A DNA stretch of 64,000 nt from Trichoplax sp. H2 (taxonomy: Eukaryota): positions 124,001 to 188,000 of the forward strand of contig NOWV01000148.1 in NCBI GenBank assembly GCA_003344405.1, given 5' to 3'. The position numbers and the translations under genes were made by a program. Every line of letters begins with the position of its first letter. The first letter of the stretch is position 1. Below, in pieces: positions 1 to 52,433 of the stretch. A model generated the notes under the pieces. The model did no database searches. It had not been told where the DNA came from and worked only from the letters and a program-made list of their open reading frames with translations.

Positions 1-1856
1 TGGAAAAAGCTGAGATCTAATGTAAAATCTTTGCGTAGAAGGTGTTTCAATTATTTGAATATGTATCTTTTCAATAGCTGAACTTACTATATAATAAATA
101 AAAAAATTTATAATATCTCAAGGTTTAAAACTTACTCCTAAATAAATAATAATTCTAGATCATAAAATTACTTGCTTTCAGAATAGGACCTTATGTGCAT
201 CGAACTTTTGCGTTTTTTTGCTTAATCAAATTGTTACTTGATACTATATACTAATGAATATCATTATGGTTGCTACAAACTAGAGTTGTTGTGAGGCATT
301 TTGACTAGTCAGAAGAGAATATTGAATCTATTTTTATATCCAGACAGTAAAAAATCTCATAGCAGAGACGAATTAAATTCTTTTTGTGAAATAGATTTAA
401 CTTATACCTAAGGCATCTTTCAATAATAAAAGCCAGTAGAGGGTATATGATAAATACTGTATGTTGTGATATAATGACGCAAACAGATCAAAAACTCATT
501 GTTAGTAGGTCCGTGAAAGGATATATCTTTTTTAGCCGTGAATACCAGGTGCTTATACTCTAATGATTGAATCAAGTAGAATTTTATGTCTGGATAGAAA
601 TATTTGACCGATACATTTTTAAATCTTAGGCCATTAGTAGATCTATGATATTAATAGGTCAAAGATTCAATCTTAGTCAATCCAGCAATTGTCTCATCAA
701 GTATCATAGTATTATATCAAGATTCTTCTTTCTATATAGCATTGCCTAAAAATCGTGGAACCATTTATGAAGTAGATATGCTTCAGATAATCAGCAATAA
801 TCTTATTTCCATCAGTGTCTCCTATGCCGTTATTGAGCGTTCACATTTGCAGTAGTCTGTCTAAGATTGATTTGAATTTAAAGTAGGGTAAAACATCCCT
901 TAAAAACCGCATTAGTAAAATTGAAAGAAAAGTGCTGCCTAGAAAGATTCTTATCTCTATTCCTCTCCACTAAAATAATGTATCGGTAAAAGCACCTTAT
1001 TCTTATTTTATACAATGAGTTAGGAACAAGTAATTGTAATATTGAATCTCCTTAGGCATATCTCTAATAAGGAGTGCGATACGCTACATATTTTCATTTA
1101 TGAATGATTTTATAGGAGTCTGATTTCGGAATATCATAGAATAGATGGTTGATTAATGATGTAATTATTATGCAAACTTTTTCTATATGAGTAATTAATG
1201 AAAATAATAGAGATTTATGTCGATCTATTTTGTATTAAATATCGTAATTTTATTAAGCAATTGTGCAAAGTTGATGTAACTTAAAATGATTATTACGAAC
1301 CAAATAGAATCAACTAAAAACAGTCATGTTATCAGATATTTATTAATTGATGTTCTGTACAGATTTGAAACAGAGTAGCATAAAAGCAGTTGGATTACTA
1401 TACTTATAGATCAACATGAATTATTGTAATTGTAACAAAATAACTTTTACCCCTATCTTAACTTGTTTATTTGAACGGATAAAGAATCGATTGTAAAAGT
1501 TGGATCATGAAGCTTTTATCGTCTCAAATTTTTAAGGCAAATATCAATAGTCTCCAACTAACGTAAAATAATTTTAATATTAGTTATTGTAATGCTAAAT
1601 AAGAGGTAGCCTATAAACATTATAACGTTATTGCCACAAAGTATCGATGGGGTATTTAACGGCTAAATATCGGTAAATTTAAATTTAGTAGTGCATTAAC
1701 TTCCTTCTCTATTGATCGACATTAATGTGGCTGTCGCATTCGTTTATGCTAACGTGATCGGATGGTATATAGTTTAAATAAATAAGTAAATTTAGGATAA
1801 TTTTCCTCTTTTCGTTATTGTTCTTCATTTTTGAATATTAATTAAAGGTACTAAAA

Positions 1857-3474
1857 TTATTTTATGTGCTTATTATGAAAGTAATTGGCGAATTCTTCGC
1901 GAATTTTGACCGCTTTCACAGAAGCATTACTTCCTTGCTTTTTCAACGGTTTTAGACCAGCAGGTTTATCAAACATTCGCCAATTACCTTGCAGTGGAAC
2001 TTTAAAGCCTTGATCCTTTATTACTCTATCAAATGTTCCCTTTGGTGAATAAATTTCCTTGGCTGTAGTATTTCGTCTCATGAAATTATGCAAAACAACA
2101 CACGCTAAAGCTGCTCTTTTAGCGTCTTGCATACTTAAATGAATAGGTTGCTGAAAAATTCGAAATACAGCTGCCATAATTCCAATAGTGTTTTCAATCA
2201 TTGCTCTTACCCTAACAATGTGATAATTGAATAATTTCTCTTTCATACTTAGACCACAACGCCGATGATAAGGCTTCATTAGGTGGACACTTAGCGGAAA
2301 TGCATCTTCAGCTACAACTACATATGGTACAATATTGTGTCCACCAGGCAATGGTACCTGCTGAGGAAATTGCAATCCATTTCGCGATAGATTTTGATAT
2401 AAACTACTGCCTTTAAATGCACCGCCTTCGGAAGGCTTTCCCCAATTGCCGATATCTACTGCCATAAAGTTATAATCGGCATCGATCATGGCCAAGAATA
2501 CAAAATTATCAGAATTGTTCGTATTTACACTATTAGCTTTTCCTTCAACATTAGGGTCAACAATAATATGCCTTCCACCAATTGCCCCAATACAGTGGCA
2601 AAATTTCCATTGACGATGAAATTCACTTTCTATCTCCAGCCATTCTCGATCAGTGATAGGAGTCTATAGTTTATTAAATTTATTCAATTCATTAATTAGC
2701 TAGGTAGATAGCGTTGCGGACCTTCTCGATTGATCAGATAGTCCTATGGACTTTTAGATGCTCAAGCTTTTTAGTAGATTTTAGTATCCGCGTCCTAGTA
2801 ATTATATGGTGCACTATAAGGAGGCTAATTACCTTATCTAATTCTTTATTAAATAAATAAATATCAATTTACTAGTATATGGGTACGGTAACCAAATCAA
2901 ATGTATCACTTAATTATTAGTCGATAAAAATACATAACAATAATTTTGCGGCTAATAATGATATTTATTATAATAAAATAAAACTTGTAAGCGTTACTGA
3001 GCTAAGCTAACCATCTCACTAAGCGATGTCAGCGATTTATTATCATTATCATCAATGTTTTACTACAATTACATGTTTATTTATCTTACTAACCCGAAGA
3101 TAGCAAGCCAGAACTTTAGGAATAGCCTCACAGACTTTGCTGATTATTTGATACATACTAGTTTGCGATATCTTATATTGATATCGAATACTATCATAAG
3201 TATCACCAGTGACCAAAAATCGAAGTGTTAACATAACTTGTACAGGTGGGCTGATAGCAATGCCATCTTGATTTGGATTTTCCTGCTCTAATTCAGGTGC
3301 TAACAAAGCCGATAAGTAACGAAAATCTTCAGGCGAAAGTCGCATCATATTTTGAAATGTTGTTTTGTCATCCAATAATAATTGACAGCATGACATGTAA
3401 GATTCTTCTATACGAGGGTTAGACCTACAATTGTAAATACCCGTGCACGTATCGCATTTAATAAGCAATTTCAT
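1857..3474 (-). CDS. PIF/Harbinger transposase-derived protein (HARBI1/ALP1-like, DDE_Tnp_4 fold); at least 2 exons (~3476-3094, 2663-1857), possibly further short 5' exons up to an ATG at 5417
   Basis: Spliced translation (CGG|gttagt ... actatag|ACT) gives FQNMMRLSPEDFRYLSALL...QVMLTLRFLVTGDTYDSIRYQYKISQTS (HTH), then W..IESEFHRQWKFCHCIGAIGGRHI, LAMIDADYNF, DAFPL..HLMKPY, FNY..R.RAMIENTIG and ACVVLHNF. These are typical Harbinger transposase motifs. Confidence 0.85.
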
Positions 3475-5540
3475 CCCTTACTAATAAACAAACCAAACAT
3501 TTCAATTCATTCATGCTTTTAAACATAATCGCCATGTTACGTAATCTTTGGAAAGCCTTGAAGAGGCTTACTAAATTATTTTACTATTTAACATAGATGT
3601 AGTTGAAAAATTCTTTAAATATTCTATTTCGTAGGGTTGAGCGCTGAATATATTGGATAAGAAAATTTGTATTATAATTAATTAATTTAAATTTTATTAG
3701 ATTTAGCCAAATTTAAGGTTAATCTGCTATTGGCTATTAAACGCATTACATTACAGAAATAAGCTAAAGATTATTTACGTTCATTGAGGCTGATGTCAAT
3801 ATATATATACAGTCTATTGAGCTTATAAAAGAACTCAAAATTTTCTTTCTGATGCAATAGTGCTTACAACAATATCTGATTCATTTATCTATTTATATAG
3901 AGCATTGTCGAGTATATTTTAGTTCGTTAATTAACAACGGACACTAATTTTCCTGTACGTTACTTCATATACCAAAATAACTAACTTAACGTAGACAACT
4001 CAACTCAAAAAATGCTCATATCTAAACGTAAGGTTTTACATCTTTAAAGAATTAATATGAGCGAATCTTTTGTCTTTAATTAAAGCTATACATAAGTATT
4101 TGCAAGAAAATTACAGTATAATGTTACAAATCTTAAAAGCATTATGTTAAGGAGGTAAAACAGATATAACAGATATATGAATATTAGCAGTTTAGGGTAA
4201 CAGCTAAAAAGTAATATCATAAGCTTAAATCATATCACCATGACCTACCGTAAAATGTAGGATCCCCCAAAAAAGACATATCAGGTTTTAAAATAATTGT
4301 TAGCTACGCTACTACTAAGACAATTCTAGGATCAATTTTAAAATTTACTAAATTAATTTACCCAACGTATTAAAATAAAAAAATAAAATAGCGTGTTGAA
4401 TTTACTGGTGCCGTCATTAAATGATATCAATACGTAAAATCGATTACCTGGTAGAAATGGTTGCTTGATCTACTGTTTGGCTCGATGACTCGACGTAAGA
4501 TTTATTCCTAGCTTCATCATCTACATTGTATTTGATGAAAGCATTAGGATGAGCTATTGGCTATTCTTCGATATGAACATGACAGTACTATACAAGTCTA
4601 TAGCACAGACCTAATTCAAGCTTTTTCTTAGCTTTGGTTGGCGTTTGTTGTTTTCTCTTCTTCCCTCGAATTTGACTATTTAAGATGAATAGGTATAATA
4701 GTAAGACGATTTTAATTTCATAATTGAACATGTTTCCACGAGCCAATATGAAGCTAATTAGCAAAGCATTCAAGATTAAATGGAACAGTAAAGGAAAATA
4801 ATTTTTTCAATAGGCAAGCCAGCTGAATCGACTGATGTAGGATGCTACTCTGTAATAGGATTACCTTCCATCAGTTGAACTACTATCCTGTACCGCAGAT
4901 TGCATCCTTTGGCATCGGTCTAGACACTAGTATAGTACAGAACAGGAGCATCTACACAAATTGTGTTTTATTTGTCTGGCTGTATTTGCAGGTATAATAC
5001 GCGTATACTGTACAACTGTATATCTAGTGTACAAGGGTTAACGTAGTGCTAAGATATCCATGCCTTTGCACGGCGAATCAGTATTATTTGGATCAATTTA
5101 CTTTATGTTATAATAACAAGTGGATAAACTGTGCTACAGTACTAAGCAAACTGGATGGCTTGTGAAAATACCGTGGTGAATTGATAAAAGCAGATATACA
5201 CGTCGGTACATCATCACTGAGAAGGTAAAGAAACCTAGCAAGAGTACTTCATTCTATTACACGGTGCAGTAATAAAGAGGAAAAAGCTAATTTCCCACTT
5301 TCTCCATGTGATAGTGCATGTACACAGCACAAGCTAAACGACTTCATACAGCTCCCTGTTTATGAGTTAGCATACCTCTGCAGTAACCTCCTCATCGTTA
5401 TCTCCCTTTAGCGCCATTTTAAAAGGCTTCATGTTAGTAAAGTCAAGTTATCACCTTTTCGAGACTATAAAACATAAAGATTCTGACAGATAGATACATA
5501 GGTACCATATATAATTGGCTAGAACGGACAGTAAATTAAA

Positions 5541-6292
5541 GCAAGATGATCTCCAATCAAATCGTGCAAAATCAAATCATATCAATGCAAGCATAGCTTA
5601 AAATTGCAGTCTATTCCATTTCTTTTCTTCGGGCTTTGCCAGAATGTGAATGATTCTGCTATAAAATTACTTCCTTGTATCAAATAGTGTAAAAATTACA
5701 TCCTATGAATGCGCAATGTAACTTGAAATTGTACCAAACGTGTATTCCGCGAATTTCCACGGTTTTCTCTAGAACGTGAAAGATGCTGCAGCAAGATGAG
5801 CTCCTTCTATCAAATCATGTTAATGCGAATGTAACTTAAAACTGCGCTATATTTCATTTCATTCCTACAGATTTCACTGGAACGTTAACGATTCTGCTTC
5901 AAGATGATCTCCTTCTATCAAATAGTGCAACAATCACACCATATTAATGCGATTGTAACTCAAATATGCACTATACAATATTCCCGAATTTTTCCATGGG
6001 CTTCGCTAGAACGTGAAAGATACTGCTACAAGATGGAGCTCCTTGTTTCAAATCATATTAATGCAAATGTAGCTTAAACGTGCACTCTATTCTGCCGAAT
6101 TTCTAAGGGTTTCACTAGGATATGAAAGATATTGCTGCAAGATGACCTCCTTCTATCAAATAGTGCATAAATGACATGATATTAGTGCGAATGCAACTTA
6201 AAATTACTTTGTATTCCGCCGAATTTCCACGGTTGCTAGGACATGAAAGATACCGCTGCAAGATAACCTCCTTCTATCCAAATGATGCAAAA
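5541..6292. repeat. Degenerate tandem array, ~6.3 units of ~108-130 bp
   Basis: The motif caagatga(n)ctccttctatcaaat...aatgcgaatgtaacttaaa...ctagaacgtgaaagat recurs, with units starting near 5541, 5661, 5791, 5899, 6028, 6137 and 6258. Confidence 0.9.
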
Positions 6293-6838
6293 TAATGGTC
6301 GTTAAAAGGAAAGGAAGCTAATTTACTATTTTCTGAATGTGGTAGGGAATGTGCAGTTGTCATATTTTGTACTATTGCTATATTTAGGATGAGATCACTT
6401 CTCATTACACGATAGCTTATAAGTTCTACTAATTATGAAATAGTCATACTAAGTCATTCATTTGATTTCTCATAATAATCTGTAGATACTCTAAACTTGT
6501 TTACTTGTCAACAGGGTAAGAGAAGGCTATATAAATGAGCACATCTCTTACCCTAGATATCTTTCTAGTTGGTCCCTCCGACTATGCGCTATGTGCTTTG
6601 GATTTAAACGAACGTAGTTATTTAATTTCTTGTTTACCCTGTTCTCTGAGTTTATTAACCCTTGTTGCCATGACTGCCTAGTAGCAACAGTTCATTCAAT
6701 CAGCTACAACTTTTTCTTGCGTTAACTCTTGTTCGCTTATCTCTGCCACCATCTCTTCCAAGTTGCACAGCTTGTTTTTGCAGTCCTTGATGTTGGTCAA
6801 AGTAATTCTATTGCTATTTCAAAGCAGCTATGTCTGAA

Positions 6839-6928
6839 ATATATATATATATATGTTATATATATTAAATATATATAATAATATATACATATAAATATAT
6901 ATATAATATATATATATAATATTAATAT

Positions 6929-6960
<32 letters not shown>

Positions 6961-7040
6961 ATAAATATAACCTAATATATATGTACATCATATATAATCT
7001 ATATAACATATATATGATAATATATATATATATATATAAT
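6839..7040. repeat. Imperfect (TA)n microsatellite, ~200 bp
   Basis: An almost pure alternating A/T tract is visible. Confidence 0.95.
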
Positions 7041-7667
7041 TTCTTAAATATTTCTATTGTATTCCTTCAATTTCTTCATCATCTCTTCCTAGCTGCACAG
7101 CTTGTTTTTGCAGTTCTTAATGCTGGTCCCGTTAGCGTACCTCCGTTACCATATTCATCGCCATGGTAGTTGCAACTTCAACAGTACTTTGACGCTACGT
7201 CTGTCCTTGACTACTTCTTATTACACCAGTCGTTGTTAGCATATCTTACCTAGAAGGCTCTTAAGGATATAACTCGCCATTGAAGCTTTGATATCATTTC
7301 CTCTTAGGCTAGCTAATGCTTCAGTACTGTATTGAGCGCTTGAAGTCAACTAAGCCTTTGCTCATTGCAACTCTTGTTTAACCTCTCTAAATTATCCAAT
7401 TGCATACCAATTCCTTTAGCATTAAGTAACGTTTGCGTACCTCTCCTATCATAGTATCCATACTGCCATCCAGCCGTCCTCCAAGCCATCAGTTATTCGA
7501 AGGCGAATTGGAGTGGTGAGAGGAAATCTTGCAGTTGGCAAATCCAAAAGTGCATGTTAAGGGCCTTTAGTTAGCCTTTCCAACATCGATTAAGCTATGC
7601 ATCACTAACAGACTGTGCACTGGTTATTTTATGAGATTATCACCATCAATTCATGATTGAGGAGAAG

Positions 7668-9706
7668 ATGGGTAAGCCTTATCATCGTCGAAATCGAAAT
7701 ATGAAACATCATAAAATGCAAGCAGCAACGGCAGAGGACGAGCCAAGCTATCCCGGCGAAGGTTGTATATTGAAATTGAGCTAAATGACCAATTGTGGCG
7801 ATAAATGATCTTAATTGTGCATCAATGTTATCCCTGTAGACGTCGTTGATGAAGAAGAATCAGGATGGAATAAATTCCCGTTTCCTTTAGCCATGTGGGT
7901 AAGAGCACTGCAGCGATGATCAGTTCATGCAACTTGCAAATAGCATGTCACCATCTTCTTTTCTATCGCGTTGATATTATGGTGTTGACTGCTGATGCAA
8001 TACTAACTGTTAGTCTGAATTGTCAAGATATAGATACGACTCTTTATTGAGTGTAATTATTTCAATTAAGTAACTTGTACTAGATATACTGTAAGTACAT
8101 AAGAAAAGAGACAGTGTTGAAGGCTGTGCAAACTAGGCTAGAGGAAGAGAGTGAACGATGCGTGATTGCTTAGATCTCATCTTGTTACTCGTTGGTAACA
8201 ACATATCGCTACGCTGTTGATTGAGTTGATTTAGCTGTTGTTCCCTTACTCATTGGGAACTTTTATTCCCTAACGGAATAAATTAAATATAGCCAGATCT
8301 AAAGTCTGCTTGATTATTTATGACTACATCCCAACAGTTTGGATAGACTGTTGATGTGAATTCAAATAGAATATTATCATGGATTTAGTATGCATCATAA
8401 TGGTGCAAGGAGTTGATACATTACAATTTCATGCACTCTATTTGATTGCATTACATATAGGATTTTCAACATTGTGATCCGAAGAAATGCTCTGGCAGGA
8501 AATTAATGCGATTAGGCATAGTTCGCCAACTCAAAGTTTCAACGCGTTTTAATGGGATCGTTCTTAGTCCGGATGCATCACGTTATGTTTCACCAGAAGA
8601 CGCCACTTTGATTGAAAAATTTGGTATTGCTGTCATTGACTGCTCGTGGGCCAAATTGCATGAGGTGCCTTTCACCAGGATGCGTTTTAGTAACTCTCGC
8701 CTGTTGCCATACTTATTAGCGACCAATCCGATTAACTATGGAAGACCTTGTAAGTTGTCCTGTGTTGAAGCTTTCGCAGCGACAATGTATATTGCAGGTA
8801 AACGATTAACCAACACATGTAATTGTTGACAAGGTTGGACAATAGTTTATACATGATAGTCTATTAGGAGGATGATGACTGAAGATAGCTTATATTTGGA
8901 TAGGATTTAAAGATTTTGCAGAAAGAGTACTGATGCCCTTCAAGTGGGGGAAAAACTTTATTGTTTTAAACAAGTATGTTGAATGTAATCATTGTTTATT
9001 CATCCGCTGCTAATGTTGGTAATATTGCATAAGTAACGGTAGTGGAAAGACCTAGACTTGGCTATAGCATGGAATTGAATTTTTGTCGTAATATGATAGA
9101 GAATTATTAGAACAATATGCAAAATGTAAGACAGAAAAGGAGGTAGTCAAAGTACAGGAAAATTATATCCTGCAATGCGAGCAAGAACGCCGAGAACGGA
9201 AGAGTATTGGTACGTAAATTTCTCAAAAAGGACTTACAGGGTTATTTCAGTTTCCATTCTTTATTAGTAAAGTGTCTTTTGTTGTTACTTTATCCGTAAG
9301 CAGAATTGGCTATTTATTAAAATAAATACCCTTTTAAACGACAATAGATCCAATGGATATTGACTTGGATAAAGAATTTTGCAATCCTAACAGACCTGAA
9401 TTAGGAATGCCATCAGCGAGGTAGGCAGTAGATTTACATCTTTCTCGATTGTATTCATTTTAAGGTAGCACCCATTCTGTTATAACTGTATGAATCCCTC
9501 TTTTAATCTATAGTTATGAGCAGATGTAACGATCTTAAAATTGAATTGTTTAATTGGTGAAATTATTTTTTTGACATAATCTAATTTACATCAGCTCAAG
9601 CAGCGATGAAGAGATCAATGATGTCGCTGAAAAATTTGAAGGTGTTCTAGGCGAAAATTGTAAAAATGATTTGCCTGGTGCCGAAGCATCTGTAAATGAA
9701 AGTTAA
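7668..9706 (+). CDS. TSR3: 18S rRNA aminocarboxypropyltransferase TSR3; 7 exons (7668-7761, 7840-7898, 8461-8797, 8904-8973, 9100-9209, 9348-9420, 9595-9706)
   Basis: Spliced motifs [68 protein letters not shown] and NPNR. All introns are GT-AG and phase-compatible. Confidence 0.96.
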
Positions 9707-49102: not shown

Positions 49103-50164
49103 CTATGTAGTATTTAATCTGCCTCTTGATGTAACAATATCGCTACTAGGTGCAACCCCACGTCTTTTAGATTCAAAATTAGCACTTAAAACCATGAATA
49201 GAACTGGATTAACAGCCGCGTTCAGATATAGTAACAGGACCAAAGTAGGAAATAAATCAGTTTCTTCTGGCTTATAGTTTGGTATAAATTGGCCAAGAAT
49301 AGAAAATATCATGATAGGCAAATATGTAAATACATTGGTAAATACAACAGAAGCCAATATAAGACTAACACGTTTTTCAATGCGAGAAGATGAATTAGAT
49401 TTGAATAATGATCTGGATTGCTTCAATTTCATGCATATTATAATATACAATATCATTGATGTAGTATGCATGCTAAAGCCCAAAAATAATTCAATATACA
49501 AAACTGCTAGTACCATAAAGCCCTTTGAGGAATCGGTATTACAGAATTGTCCAAGTATGTCAAAACGAGTTGAGTGATGTACAGTTGCACCATGCGCTGA
49601 AAGTAGGCCAATCGTGAAAGCAACAATAAAACCTAAAAGCCAAAATATAGTAGCGACGACACGAGCATCTTTGATTGTAATTTTGCGACGACTATGGGGA
49701 AATACAACCAAGATATATCGATCAACTGCTACTATAAACGTCATTGAGATTGATATAACTAGGGACAGTTGGCTCAGAATTCTTTCCATCGTACATGTAG
49801 GGCTAATTATCCACTCATTTTCAATACTGGAATAATTAGGGTATGGTCCATACTTATTTCGATAGTGGTTTGTGTAAGAGCTATCGCTAATAGCCAAAAT
49901 TACTAAGTATAAACTGCTGACCAAGTCACCAAGGCTTAAATTAAACAGCAAAAAGATGGATGGATTTCGACTAATGAGAAGTCTATAGCGATTATTCACT
50001 ATTAAATATTTTGTAAAAATTGTCTTAGATTTATGGTAATTTAGTAGAAGTAATTCCGCAATAATGATAATATTGCAGGGCAAACTAACTAAACCTAACG
50101 ACCAACATAGTCCACGAACAATATTATAGTGAAGAAATACTGAATAAGAACTGTAATTCAACAT
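49103..50164 (-). CDS. Rhodopsin-class GPCR with an RXFP/LGR(GRL101)-like 7TM domain
   Basis: 353-aa ORF with 7 hydrophobic segments: NLSLGDL (TM2), W..SPTC, VDRYILVVFP (TM3), TYLP (TM6) and NAAVNPVLF (TM7). Confidence 0.9.
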   Translation of the reverse strand: MLNYSSYSVFLHYNIVRGLCWSLGLVSLPCNIIIIAELLLLNYHKSKTIFTKYLIVNNRYRLLISRNPSIFLLFNLSLGDLVSSLYLVILAISDSSYTNHYRNKYGPYPNYSSIENEWIISPTCTMERILSQLSLVISISMTFIVAVDRYILVVFPHSRRKITIKDARVVATIFWLLGFIVAFTIGLLSAHGATVHHSTRFDILGQFCNTDSSKGFMVLAVLYIELFLGFSMHTTSMILYIIICMKLKQSRSLFKSNSSSRIEKRVSLILASVVFTNVFTYLPIMIFSILGQFIPNYKPEETDLFPTLVLLLYLNAAVNPVLFMVLSANFESKRRGVAPSSDIVTSRGRLNTT

Positions 50165-50315
50165 TTTATCGTTATCGTTATTAAACTACTTATCGTTATG
50201 TTGATATTGCAGAAGATAGACAATGGTAAAACGATCAAACCAAAGTATTGCGTATCGAAAATGTCGTAAGTTAAGTTCTTTTCGGTAAATATAAAACAGT
50301 CCAGGATCAGAACAC

Positions 50316-50733: not shown

Positions 50734-51334
50734 AACACCCAGCGCAAAATTCAGATAGATTGTCAAGTATCATATAATAAAATCTGACGGTAATCTTAAT
50801 CACTATTAGTAGTAGTAGTAGTAGCAGGTCAGCTATTTTATTAATGAGAAAGAAAAAAGGTGATGCCAATTTCGGAACTGTGATACATAAACAAAATTGC
50901 AAATAGATGCTTACTTCAAAGCTGTTACTCTTCAGATTTTTATGCTATAAATCGGACTGTATAAAATTTCAATCCAGGATTAATGCTTTTGATTCAATCA
51001 AGTCGACGTGTATTAAATCGACATACTGTAATAAGAAAAAGGTTGATAGATAAGATCTATAAATTAACAACAAATATCTGAATTGTCACTTTTTACTATA
51101 GCAACCTATAACTCACAATTTTGAATCTTTTTTCCAAACTGAATAGGCTATTCCAATAATTAATGAATACTTAATCAATTCATAAATTTATAAAAGGATG
51201 CTATTAATAATTAAAGAATAAAGACGTAAATTCTATTATTAATTAAATACTACCTAAGCTATTACTCTGAATTATCATCTTACATAATGACCTTTCCTAA
51301 GATTGAATGTATTAACGGTAAATGCATAGAAATA

Positions 51335-51354
51335 NNNNNNNNNNNNNNNNNNNN
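51335..51354. other. Assembly gap (20 N)
   Basis: Run of N. Confidence 1.
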
Positions 51355-52433
51355 TAATTAGGGTATGGTCCATACTTATTTCGATAGTGGTTTGTGTAAG
51401 AGCTATCGCTAATAGCCAAAATTACTAAGTATAAACTGCTGACCAAGTCACCAAGGCTTAAATTAAACAGCAAAAAGATGGATGGATTTCGACTAATGAG
51501 AAATCTATAGCGATTATTCACTATTAAATTTTTTGTAAAAATTGTCTTAGATTTATGGTAATTTAGTAGAAGTAATTCCGCAATAATGATAATATTGCAG
51601 GGCAAACTAACTAAACCTAACGACCAACATAGTCCACGAACAATATTATAGTGAAGAAATACTGAATAAGAACTGTAATTCAACATTTTATCGTTATCGT
51701 TATTAAACTACTTATCGTTATGTTGATATTGCAGAAGATAGACAATGGTAAAACGATCAAACCAAAGTATTGCGTATCGAAAATGTCGTAAGTTAAGTTT
51801 TTTTCGGTAAATATAAAACAGTCCAGGATCAGAACACCCAGCGCAAAATTCAGATAGATTGTCAAGTATCATATAATAAAATCTAACGATAATCTTAATC
51901 ACTATTAGTAGTAGTAGTAGTAGCAGGTCAGCTATTTTATTAATGAGAAAGAAAAAAGGTGATGCCAATTTCGGAACTGTGATACATAAACAAAATTGCA
52001 AATAGATGCTTACTTCAAAGCTGTTACTCTTCAGATTTTTATGCTATAAATCGGACTGTATAAAATTTCAATCCAGGATTAATGCTTTTGATTCAATCAA
52101 GTCGACGTGTATTAAATCGACATACTGTAATAAGAAAAAGGTTGATAGATAAGATCTATAAATTAACAACAAATATCTGAATTGTCACTTTTTACTATAG
52201 CAACCTATAACTCACAATTTTGAATCTTTTTTCCAAACTGAATAGGCTATTCCAATAATTAATGAATACTTAATCAATTCATAAATTTATAAAAGGATGC
52301 TATTAATAATTAAAGAATAAAGACGTAAATTCTATTATTAATTAAATACTACCTAAGCTATTACTCTGAATTATCATCTTACATAATGACCTTTCCTAAG
52401 ATTGAATGTATTAACGGTAAATGCATAGAAATA
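51355..52433. repeat. Near-identical second copy of 49833-51334 without the LTR insertion; probably the alternate haplotype, and includes the 5' part of the GPCR ORF
   Basis: The copy is 1079 bp, equal to 1502 bp minus 423 bp (LTR plus TSD). About five substitutions were seen. The copies abut the gap exactly. Confidence 0.9.

Follow-up and report, generated by a model that had tools for sequence, protein, structure and literature searches.

A single-copy Harbinger transposase derivative with a broken catalytic triad in Trichoplax sp. H2, a candidate domesticated gene

The DNA analyzed here (hereafter "the window") was a 64,000-nucleotide (nt) stretch of Trichoplax sp. H2 (assembly GCA_003344405.1, contig NOWV01000148.1, positions 124,001 to 188,000 of the forward strand) with a G+C content of 32.4%; all coordinates are those of the window. 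Near its left end, the minus strand carries a two-exon gene whose product is, as judged from its sequence, a nuclease-dead derivative of a Harbinger transposase. A stop-to-stop scan of the minus strand yielded two frames (1857..2663 and 3052..3477), and the spliced model built on them contains 395 codons and no stop. Exon 1 (3094..3474, minus strand) encodes 127 amino acids (aa) of an N-terminal helical region that is helix-turn-helix (HTH)-like in the family; its ATG at 3474 lies one codon past an in-frame stop. Exon 2 (1860..2663, minus strand) encodes the 268-aa DDE_Tnp_4 (RNase H-like) catalytic core, assigned by Pfam, alignment columns, AlphaFold2, and structural matches, and is followed by the stop codon, TAA, at 1857..1859. 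The intervening 430-nt intron (2664..3093, 28.4% G+C) is of the GT-AG type (GTTAGT...TATAG), with the donor reading CGG/GTTAGT (exon end at 3094) and the acceptor reading TATAG/ACT (exon start at 2663). At the junction, YLR/TPITDREW of the gene was aligned with YLQMPNTEDEW of full-length homologues, and the two exons together are colinear with full-length PIF/Harbinger transposases of 400-420 aa. The uninterrupted, spliced reading frame claimed in a preliminary description of this DNA was thus recovered. Many homologues are open reading frames (ORFs) that start exactly at the exon 2 start; the intron, then, was probably already part of the transposon, and its splicing is no evidence of domestication.

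Alignment to the DDE_Tnp_4 profile (Pfam PF13359), which had been proposed as a check on the family assignment, placed exon 2 well above the gathering cut-off (63.8 vs. 24.8 bits, E = 1.9e-17, profile positions 15-158 of 158). For exon 1, the match to Pfam HTH_Tnp_4 was weak and sub-threshold (14.1 bits vs. a 27-bit cut-off), and a Foldseek search with the exon 1 model returned only weak HTH matches (E ≥ 0.6). The homology of this N-terminal region to full-length transposases was seen by blastp and alignment; against 169 homologue proteins, exon 1 gave 66 blastp match rows with a best E of 2e-17. The AlphaFold2 model of exon 2 had a pLDDT of 92.5 and a pTM of 0.89, and that of exon 1 had a pLDDT of 76.5, with helices at residues 76-122. 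A wide structural scan with the exon 2 model featured DDE transposases and integrases in all of its top 32 rows, the best being Tn5 (Z = 7.1, root-mean-square deviation of 5.0 over 184 residues); each of these Z scores is middling taken alone. Among solved structures, no sequence relative was detected at E ≤ 1 in single-protein and profile searches, and Foldseek against the PDB found no match at E ≤ 0.001 for the model of either exon. On the strength of the DDE_Tnp_4 match and the colinearity with full-length homologues, the gene is considered to descend from a PIF/Harbinger transposase, as had been suggested.

Five motifs were read from the minus strand: CIGAIGGRH (2568..2594), VNTNNSD (2508..2528), GKPSE (2427..2441), VVAEDAFP (2295..2318), and RAMIE (2193..2207). 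Every motif given in the preliminary description was found at its place, letter for letter, as was GGT at 2579..2577. A HMMER search run exhaustively over 1.84 billion cluster representatives yielded 9557 proteins at E ≤ 0.001. The exon 2 alignment comprised 155 homologues (150 from this search and five from a second protein search), and all residue counts were made over non-gap sequences. The GGT codon (2577..2579) specifies Gly29 at the position of the first catalytic Asp of the family (D in 139 of 147 homologues), and GAA at 2307..2309 specifies Glu119 at that of the second (D in 151 of 155). Only the catalytic Glu is kept, as Glu157 (GAA at 2193..2195; E in 149 of 155), and the GAG found there in DNA sequencing run X4 is synonymous. 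In the column of the GxxSD motif, the gene has Glu79, where 148 of 154 homologues have Asp. The triad accordingly reads G/E/E vs. D/D/E in the family, and the earlier claim of a broken catalytic triad is borne out. The D/D/E columns are what we take to be the catalytic triad from the motifs familiar for these proteins; the AlphaFold2 model of exon 2 fits, placing G29 on strand 1, E119 just past the strand formed by residues 115-118, and E157 on the helix formed by residues 140-167. Differences to the window were listed for two DNA runs (nine of 10 for X1, 21 of 23 for X4), and none of those listed fell at 2577-2579, the codon at which GAT in reads had been named as the contrary sign. In the rice PIF element PING, a single mutated triad residue sharply lowers transposition (cited in the available part of PMC4671723).

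The surroundings of the gene were examined for the hallmarks of a transposon. No significant terminal inverted repeat (TIR) was found around it: of 300 dinucleotide shuffles, 34 reached or exceeded the score of the best inverted pair (1661-1685/3684-3708), as did one of 33 controls of identical geometry drawn from real sequence, and this candidate was rejected as not significant. Nor do the triplets that flank the pair (AAC and AAA) agree, i.e., they form no 3-bp target-site duplication (TSD). None of the 51 further ORFs of at least 40 aa within positions 1-8400 of the window was of the Myb/SANT/MADF type. The absence of TIRs and of such a partner nearby, as previously reported, is upheld by these results. 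They also bear on the idea that the gene is a working transposase with a non-canonical active site, carried by an autonomous, single-ORF Harbinger element of ca. 2 kb (ca. 1661-3708). The inverted pair does bracket the gene, and over 30 nt (1661-1690/3679-3708, GGCTAAAT.../...ATTTAGCC) it is 77% complementary. This idea is nevertheless close to refuted, and we allow it hardly any chance; apart from the insignificance of the pair and the mismatched triplets, the Gly at the first catalytic position is unable to bind metal, neither a partner ORF (in 1-8400) nor another copy (in the window or among the listed pieces of the DNA runs) was found, and the loose ends of other contigs (1570, 1601, 1619, and 3701) lie off the proposed boundaries.

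Copy number was assessed in the window and in the two DNA runs. The X1 contig spans 1-5290 and has 10 differences to the window. In X4, which is labelled as a different organism, a contig spanning 503-3828 (3326 nt) represents this locus and shows 23 differences to the window (ca. 0.7%), and there was no insertion or deletion in the coding sequence among the differences listed. The locus sits on ordinary, unique-depth contigs in both runs. No second copy was found within the 64-kb window, and none at ≥80% identity among the pieces listed for the two runs (all but 21), where those from other contigs cover only 21-36 nt in the coding exons; within this scope, the check on copy number called for earlier came out in favor of a lone, single-copy gene. 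A whole-genome census recorded three Harbinger/PIF matches, 2479 bp in total (available part of PMC2871265). Outside the coding exons, two short AT-rich segments (4327-4362 and 3653-3684) recur within one DNA run on contigs other than that of the locus and resemble small dispersed repeats; an insertion difference was also noted at 4346-4348.

The losses in exon 2 have a distinct pattern. Among the 53 columns conserved at ≥85%, 17 are changed, and the changes cluster at residues 22-56, 79, 119, and 148-160. The retention of conserved columns (36 of 53, ca. 0.67-0.68) compares with a median of ca. 0.94 in 149-152 sequences, only two homologues being lower, and lies below expectation by a residual of -0.21 (3.6 standard deviations). 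At the 225 variable columns, by comparison, identity is ordinary (0.270; median, 0.297; rank 19 from the bottom among 152). Conserved columns show an excess loss of ca. 28%.

The best single reading of these data is that the gene is a domesticated or domesticating transposase; it is plausible but unproven, and we give it an even chance. Under this reading, a single-copy PIF/Harbinger-derived gene would have been fixed at one Trichoplax locus. The ability to cut DNA would have been lost as Gly replaced the first Asp, Glu replaced both the second Asp and a conserved neighboring Asp, and the loops and helix framing the active site were rewritten. What has been kept is the reading frame over its full length, the two splice sites, and the helical, HTH-like N-terminal region. 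Until recently at least, selection may thus have preserved a protein that is full-length and folded but non-catalytic, and such a protein would most likely work by binding DNA, other proteins, or both through its RNase H-like scaffold, not by transposition. In the available part of PMC9710019, domesticated PIF genes are recognized structurally by a lack of TIRs, a lack of related copies, and an intact frame, all of which were observed here, and evolutionarily by synteny across distant species and a ratio of non-synonymous to synonymous substitution significantly below 1, the evolutionary signs being the decisive ones.

The serious rival is a dead transposon relic, stranded in the genome and drifting neutrally, whose frame is open because inactivation was recent or because the source lineage was already defective; we hold this to be quite possible, if short of probable. 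Against it stands the frame itself: in AT-rich DNA (the flanks of the gene have 30% G+C), neither the 395 codons nor the two splice sites have been disrupted. In a substitution-only neutral model (2000 runs, AT-biased mutation, started from the present coding sequence), the fraction of runs with the frame still open was 0.13 when 7.5% of residues had changed, falling to 0.005 for 17.5% and to 0.0005 for 28.8%. An open frame under neutrality thus has P ≤ 0.005 when at least 17% of residues have changed, and its persistence by chance appears unlikely in this rough model (P < 0.001). The concentration of the losses in family-conserved columns, with normal identity at variable ones, is likewise not what a drifting relic would suggest, and the periodicity of G+C by codon position (0.42-0.50/0.36-0.37/0.28-0.30) is kept, as in host exons in the window. 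According to the available part of PMC2871265, most relics of transposable elements (TEs) in Trichoplax carry frequent stops or frameshifts. The same source places Trichoplax among the most TE-poor animal genomes (0.13%), and an intact transposase-derived frame is therefore unlikely to be noise.

Other observations weigh against domestication, and several of them are what the relic would predict. The neutral model assumes that the losses at conserved columns came after insertion. The N-terminal basic stretch of many homologues is missing from the two-exon protein, and the conserved columns lost include structural as well as catalytic ones (e.g. P22C, P38N, and G42K). Within the species, there is no consistent sign of constraint: the coding differences among those listed for the two DNA runs comprise three synonymous (2193, 2418, and 3226) and three non-synonymous ones (2201, 2244, and 2290), and in X1 there is no depletion of differences in coding sequence, which makes up 22% of the contig and contains four of the 10. 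For X4, the coding share is 36% and contains four of 21-23 differences, a marginal depletion (P = 0.05-0.08). No other sequence among the 152 in the tree has a root-to-tip path as long as that of the protein, and relaxed constraint would account for this as well. The available part of PMC2871265 describes the TEs of Trichoplax as inactive relics, with no TE-like sequence in 14,572 expressed sequence tags and complete TE ORFs only in hAT and mariner. No orthologue was found in protein searches of other species, with nothing above 44% identity; the best homologues among the 1.84 billion cluster representatives are 37-44% identical, a word-indexed search of 5.8 billion proteins produced nothing closer than 42%, and a metagenome scan for close relatives gave 92 pattern matches, none of which was confirmed. 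The X4 locus, at 0.7% divergence, is too near and was therefore not counted as a syntenic orthologue in a distant species. Finally, the gene appears to be unannotated, because no identical protein of 147-2000 aa was present in a protein database that contains its annotated neighbor, TSR3, at 100% identity. Of the independent, nuclease-dead domestication put forward in the preliminary description, the descent, the dead triad, the spliced and uninterrupted frame, and the absence of TIRs, partner, and copies have stood; no orthologue was found, and the 3:3 ratio of synonymous to non-synonymous differences gives no clear sign of purifying selection.

Among the homologues that bear a name, the nearest are proteins of beetle, damselfly, and tunicate origin. 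A FastTree phylogeny pairs the protein (support 0.825) with P0019, a 257-aa ORF that is 36% identical and shares the Gly in place of the first catalytic Asp, a substitution present in only two of 147 homologues. Around the two lie further degenerate Harbinger-like ORFs (P0020, P0074, P0100, P0059, and P0122), the pairwise identities in the whole group being 0.30-0.48. At such identities these ORFs were not treated as orthologues, and the clade was rejected in that role. The loose grouping with degenerate ORFs, at only 30-40% identity, suits a relic, and long-branch attraction may account for it as well as a real clade would. P0019, P0059, P0100, P0020, and P0074 are exon-sized and have degenerate catalytic motifs, with Gly in two and Val in one at the first Asp; they may represent further copies that have been inactivated or domesticated. 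A further proposal, which we regard as a long shot, is that the gene is the Trichoplax member of an old, fast-evolving, nuclease-dead family derived from Harbinger, whose role might be architectural or in binding specific DNA sequences. In placozoans, transposon-derived motifs anchor promoter hubs, and which proteins bind these motifs is unknown (available part of PMC12221973). If the proposal were true, the gene would be the first demonstrated case of PIF/Harbinger domestication beyond Bilateria and plants.

Harbinger transposases have repeatedly given rise to host genes in plants, vertebrates, and insects. The vertebrate gene HARBI1 is, like the candidate described here, a host gene from a Harbinger transposase, and it keeps the nuclease motifs; the Trichoplax gene differs in its broken triad and in having no Myb ORF nearby (1-8400). 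HARBI1 interacts with a Myb partner, NAIF1 (cited in the available part of PMC4671723). As described in the available part of PMC9710019, the insect genes DPLG1-7, APLG, LPLG, and BPLG resemble the gene in being single-copy, transposase-derived, ca. 400 aa in length, free of TIRs and TSDs, and intact in frame, and BPLG2 in particular shares the two exons and the absence of an adjacent MADF gene. The host of the gene is a placozoan, and no orthologue of the gene was found; the insect genes show synteny across distant species and ratios of non-synonymous to synonymous substitution (dN/dS) of 0.04-0.33 (same source). Autonomous PIF/Harbinger transposons have a homologous transposase with DDE_Tnp_4 and an N-terminal HTH-like region; the gene is unlike them in its dead active site and in that no TIR, TSD, second ORF, or copies were found.

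A special case of domestication would be an ALP1-like role, in which the nuclease-dead Harbinger protein acts in Polycomb repressive complex 2 (PRC2) or another chromatin complex. In Arabidopsis ALP1, the DDE triad is replaced by DGA, comparable to GEE in the gene, and ALP1 co-purifies with PRC2 (available part of PMC4671723); the parallel is one of analogy only. One of the best homologues, from Ischnura elegans, bears the automatic name "protein ALP1-like". ALP1 itself, though, belongs to a land-plant lineage with PRC2 association and mutant phenotypes (same source, same part), whereas the nearest named relatives of the gene are from insects and a tunicate, and no Myb-type partner was present among the 51 ORFs mentioned above. 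There is no sign of common descent with ALP1 beyond the superfamily, the likeness being one of catalytic loss. The "ALP1-like" label and a role in PRC2 or chromatin are therefore speculation by analogy, and we consider this case very improbable.

In a full-text literature search, which covered part of the matching literature, no description of a Harbinger-derived host gene in placozoans was found, nor anything that links HARBI1 with placozoa or Trichoplax with "domesticated transposase". We know of no Harbinger domestication described in a non-bilaterian animal. The gene is a candidate addition to the well-known class of Harbinger-derived host genes. Were orthologues and expression confirmed, it would be an independent example of catalytic loss with the scaffold kept, and would supply a candidate regulator of TE origin from an animal lineage that branched early; were they not, it would be one more fossil transposase.

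The preliminary description had extended the gene upstream to 5417. This could not be sustained. When the 169 homologue proteins were compared to the window by tblastn, 224 rows resulted, of which 167 fell on exon 2 (17 of them reaching slightly beyond its edges) and 57 on exon 1; none fell in 3481-5417 or elsewhere in the window outside both exons. The upstream exons are unsupported because all homologue matches lie on exons 1 and 2; moreover, the Met at 3474 already gives a colinear, full-length protein. The region 3478..5417, counted on the minus strand as part of the gene in that description, gave no Pfam match, and exons reaching to 5417 were rejected, there being neither a homologue match nor a consistent frame that could be traced by eye. 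A guessed donor near 4464-4686 was also discarded, since contigs run colinear with the genome across the guessed site.

Two putative RNA runs (X19 and X20, which may be DNA) contained no splice-joined contig, a result that we count neither for nor against expression. They gave short, low-depth, unjoined contigs at 1299-1463, 1542-1704, 1907-2077, 2451-2604, and 4464-5474, and none on exon 1 or the intron. Those in the last interval lie at 4464-4648, 4528-4686, 4806-5057, 5000-5203, 5015-5216, and 5312-5474 and have no joints. The stretch 4464-5474, which has no Pfam or homologue match, may be an unannotated transcript or DNA carry-over.

The neighboring gene, TSR3, has an exon at 8461-8829 that is 100% identical to the annotated T. 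adhaerens protein TRIADDRAFT_62139. Of the head-to-head arrangement with TSR3 described earlier, the divergent orientation holds; the link is loose, the TSR3 coding start lying near 7668, ca. 4.2 kb from the ATG at 3474. Between the two genes, a tandem array (5571-6290) contains three copies of ca. 238 nt at 73% identity, and a 46-nt sub-repeat occurs in it six times at a spacing of 108-130 nt. An AT-rich, microsatellite-like block (ca. 6838-7060) has a 52-nt direct repeat on each side (6747-6798 and 7077-7128, 88% identical). Farther along the window, two minus-strand frames (49103-50185 and 51312-51707) have nearly the same receptor-like N-terminus (FNNDNDKMLNYSSYS...), and the second enters the window's block of Ns; these twin frames reflect tandem duplication or else an artefact of assembly at the gap.

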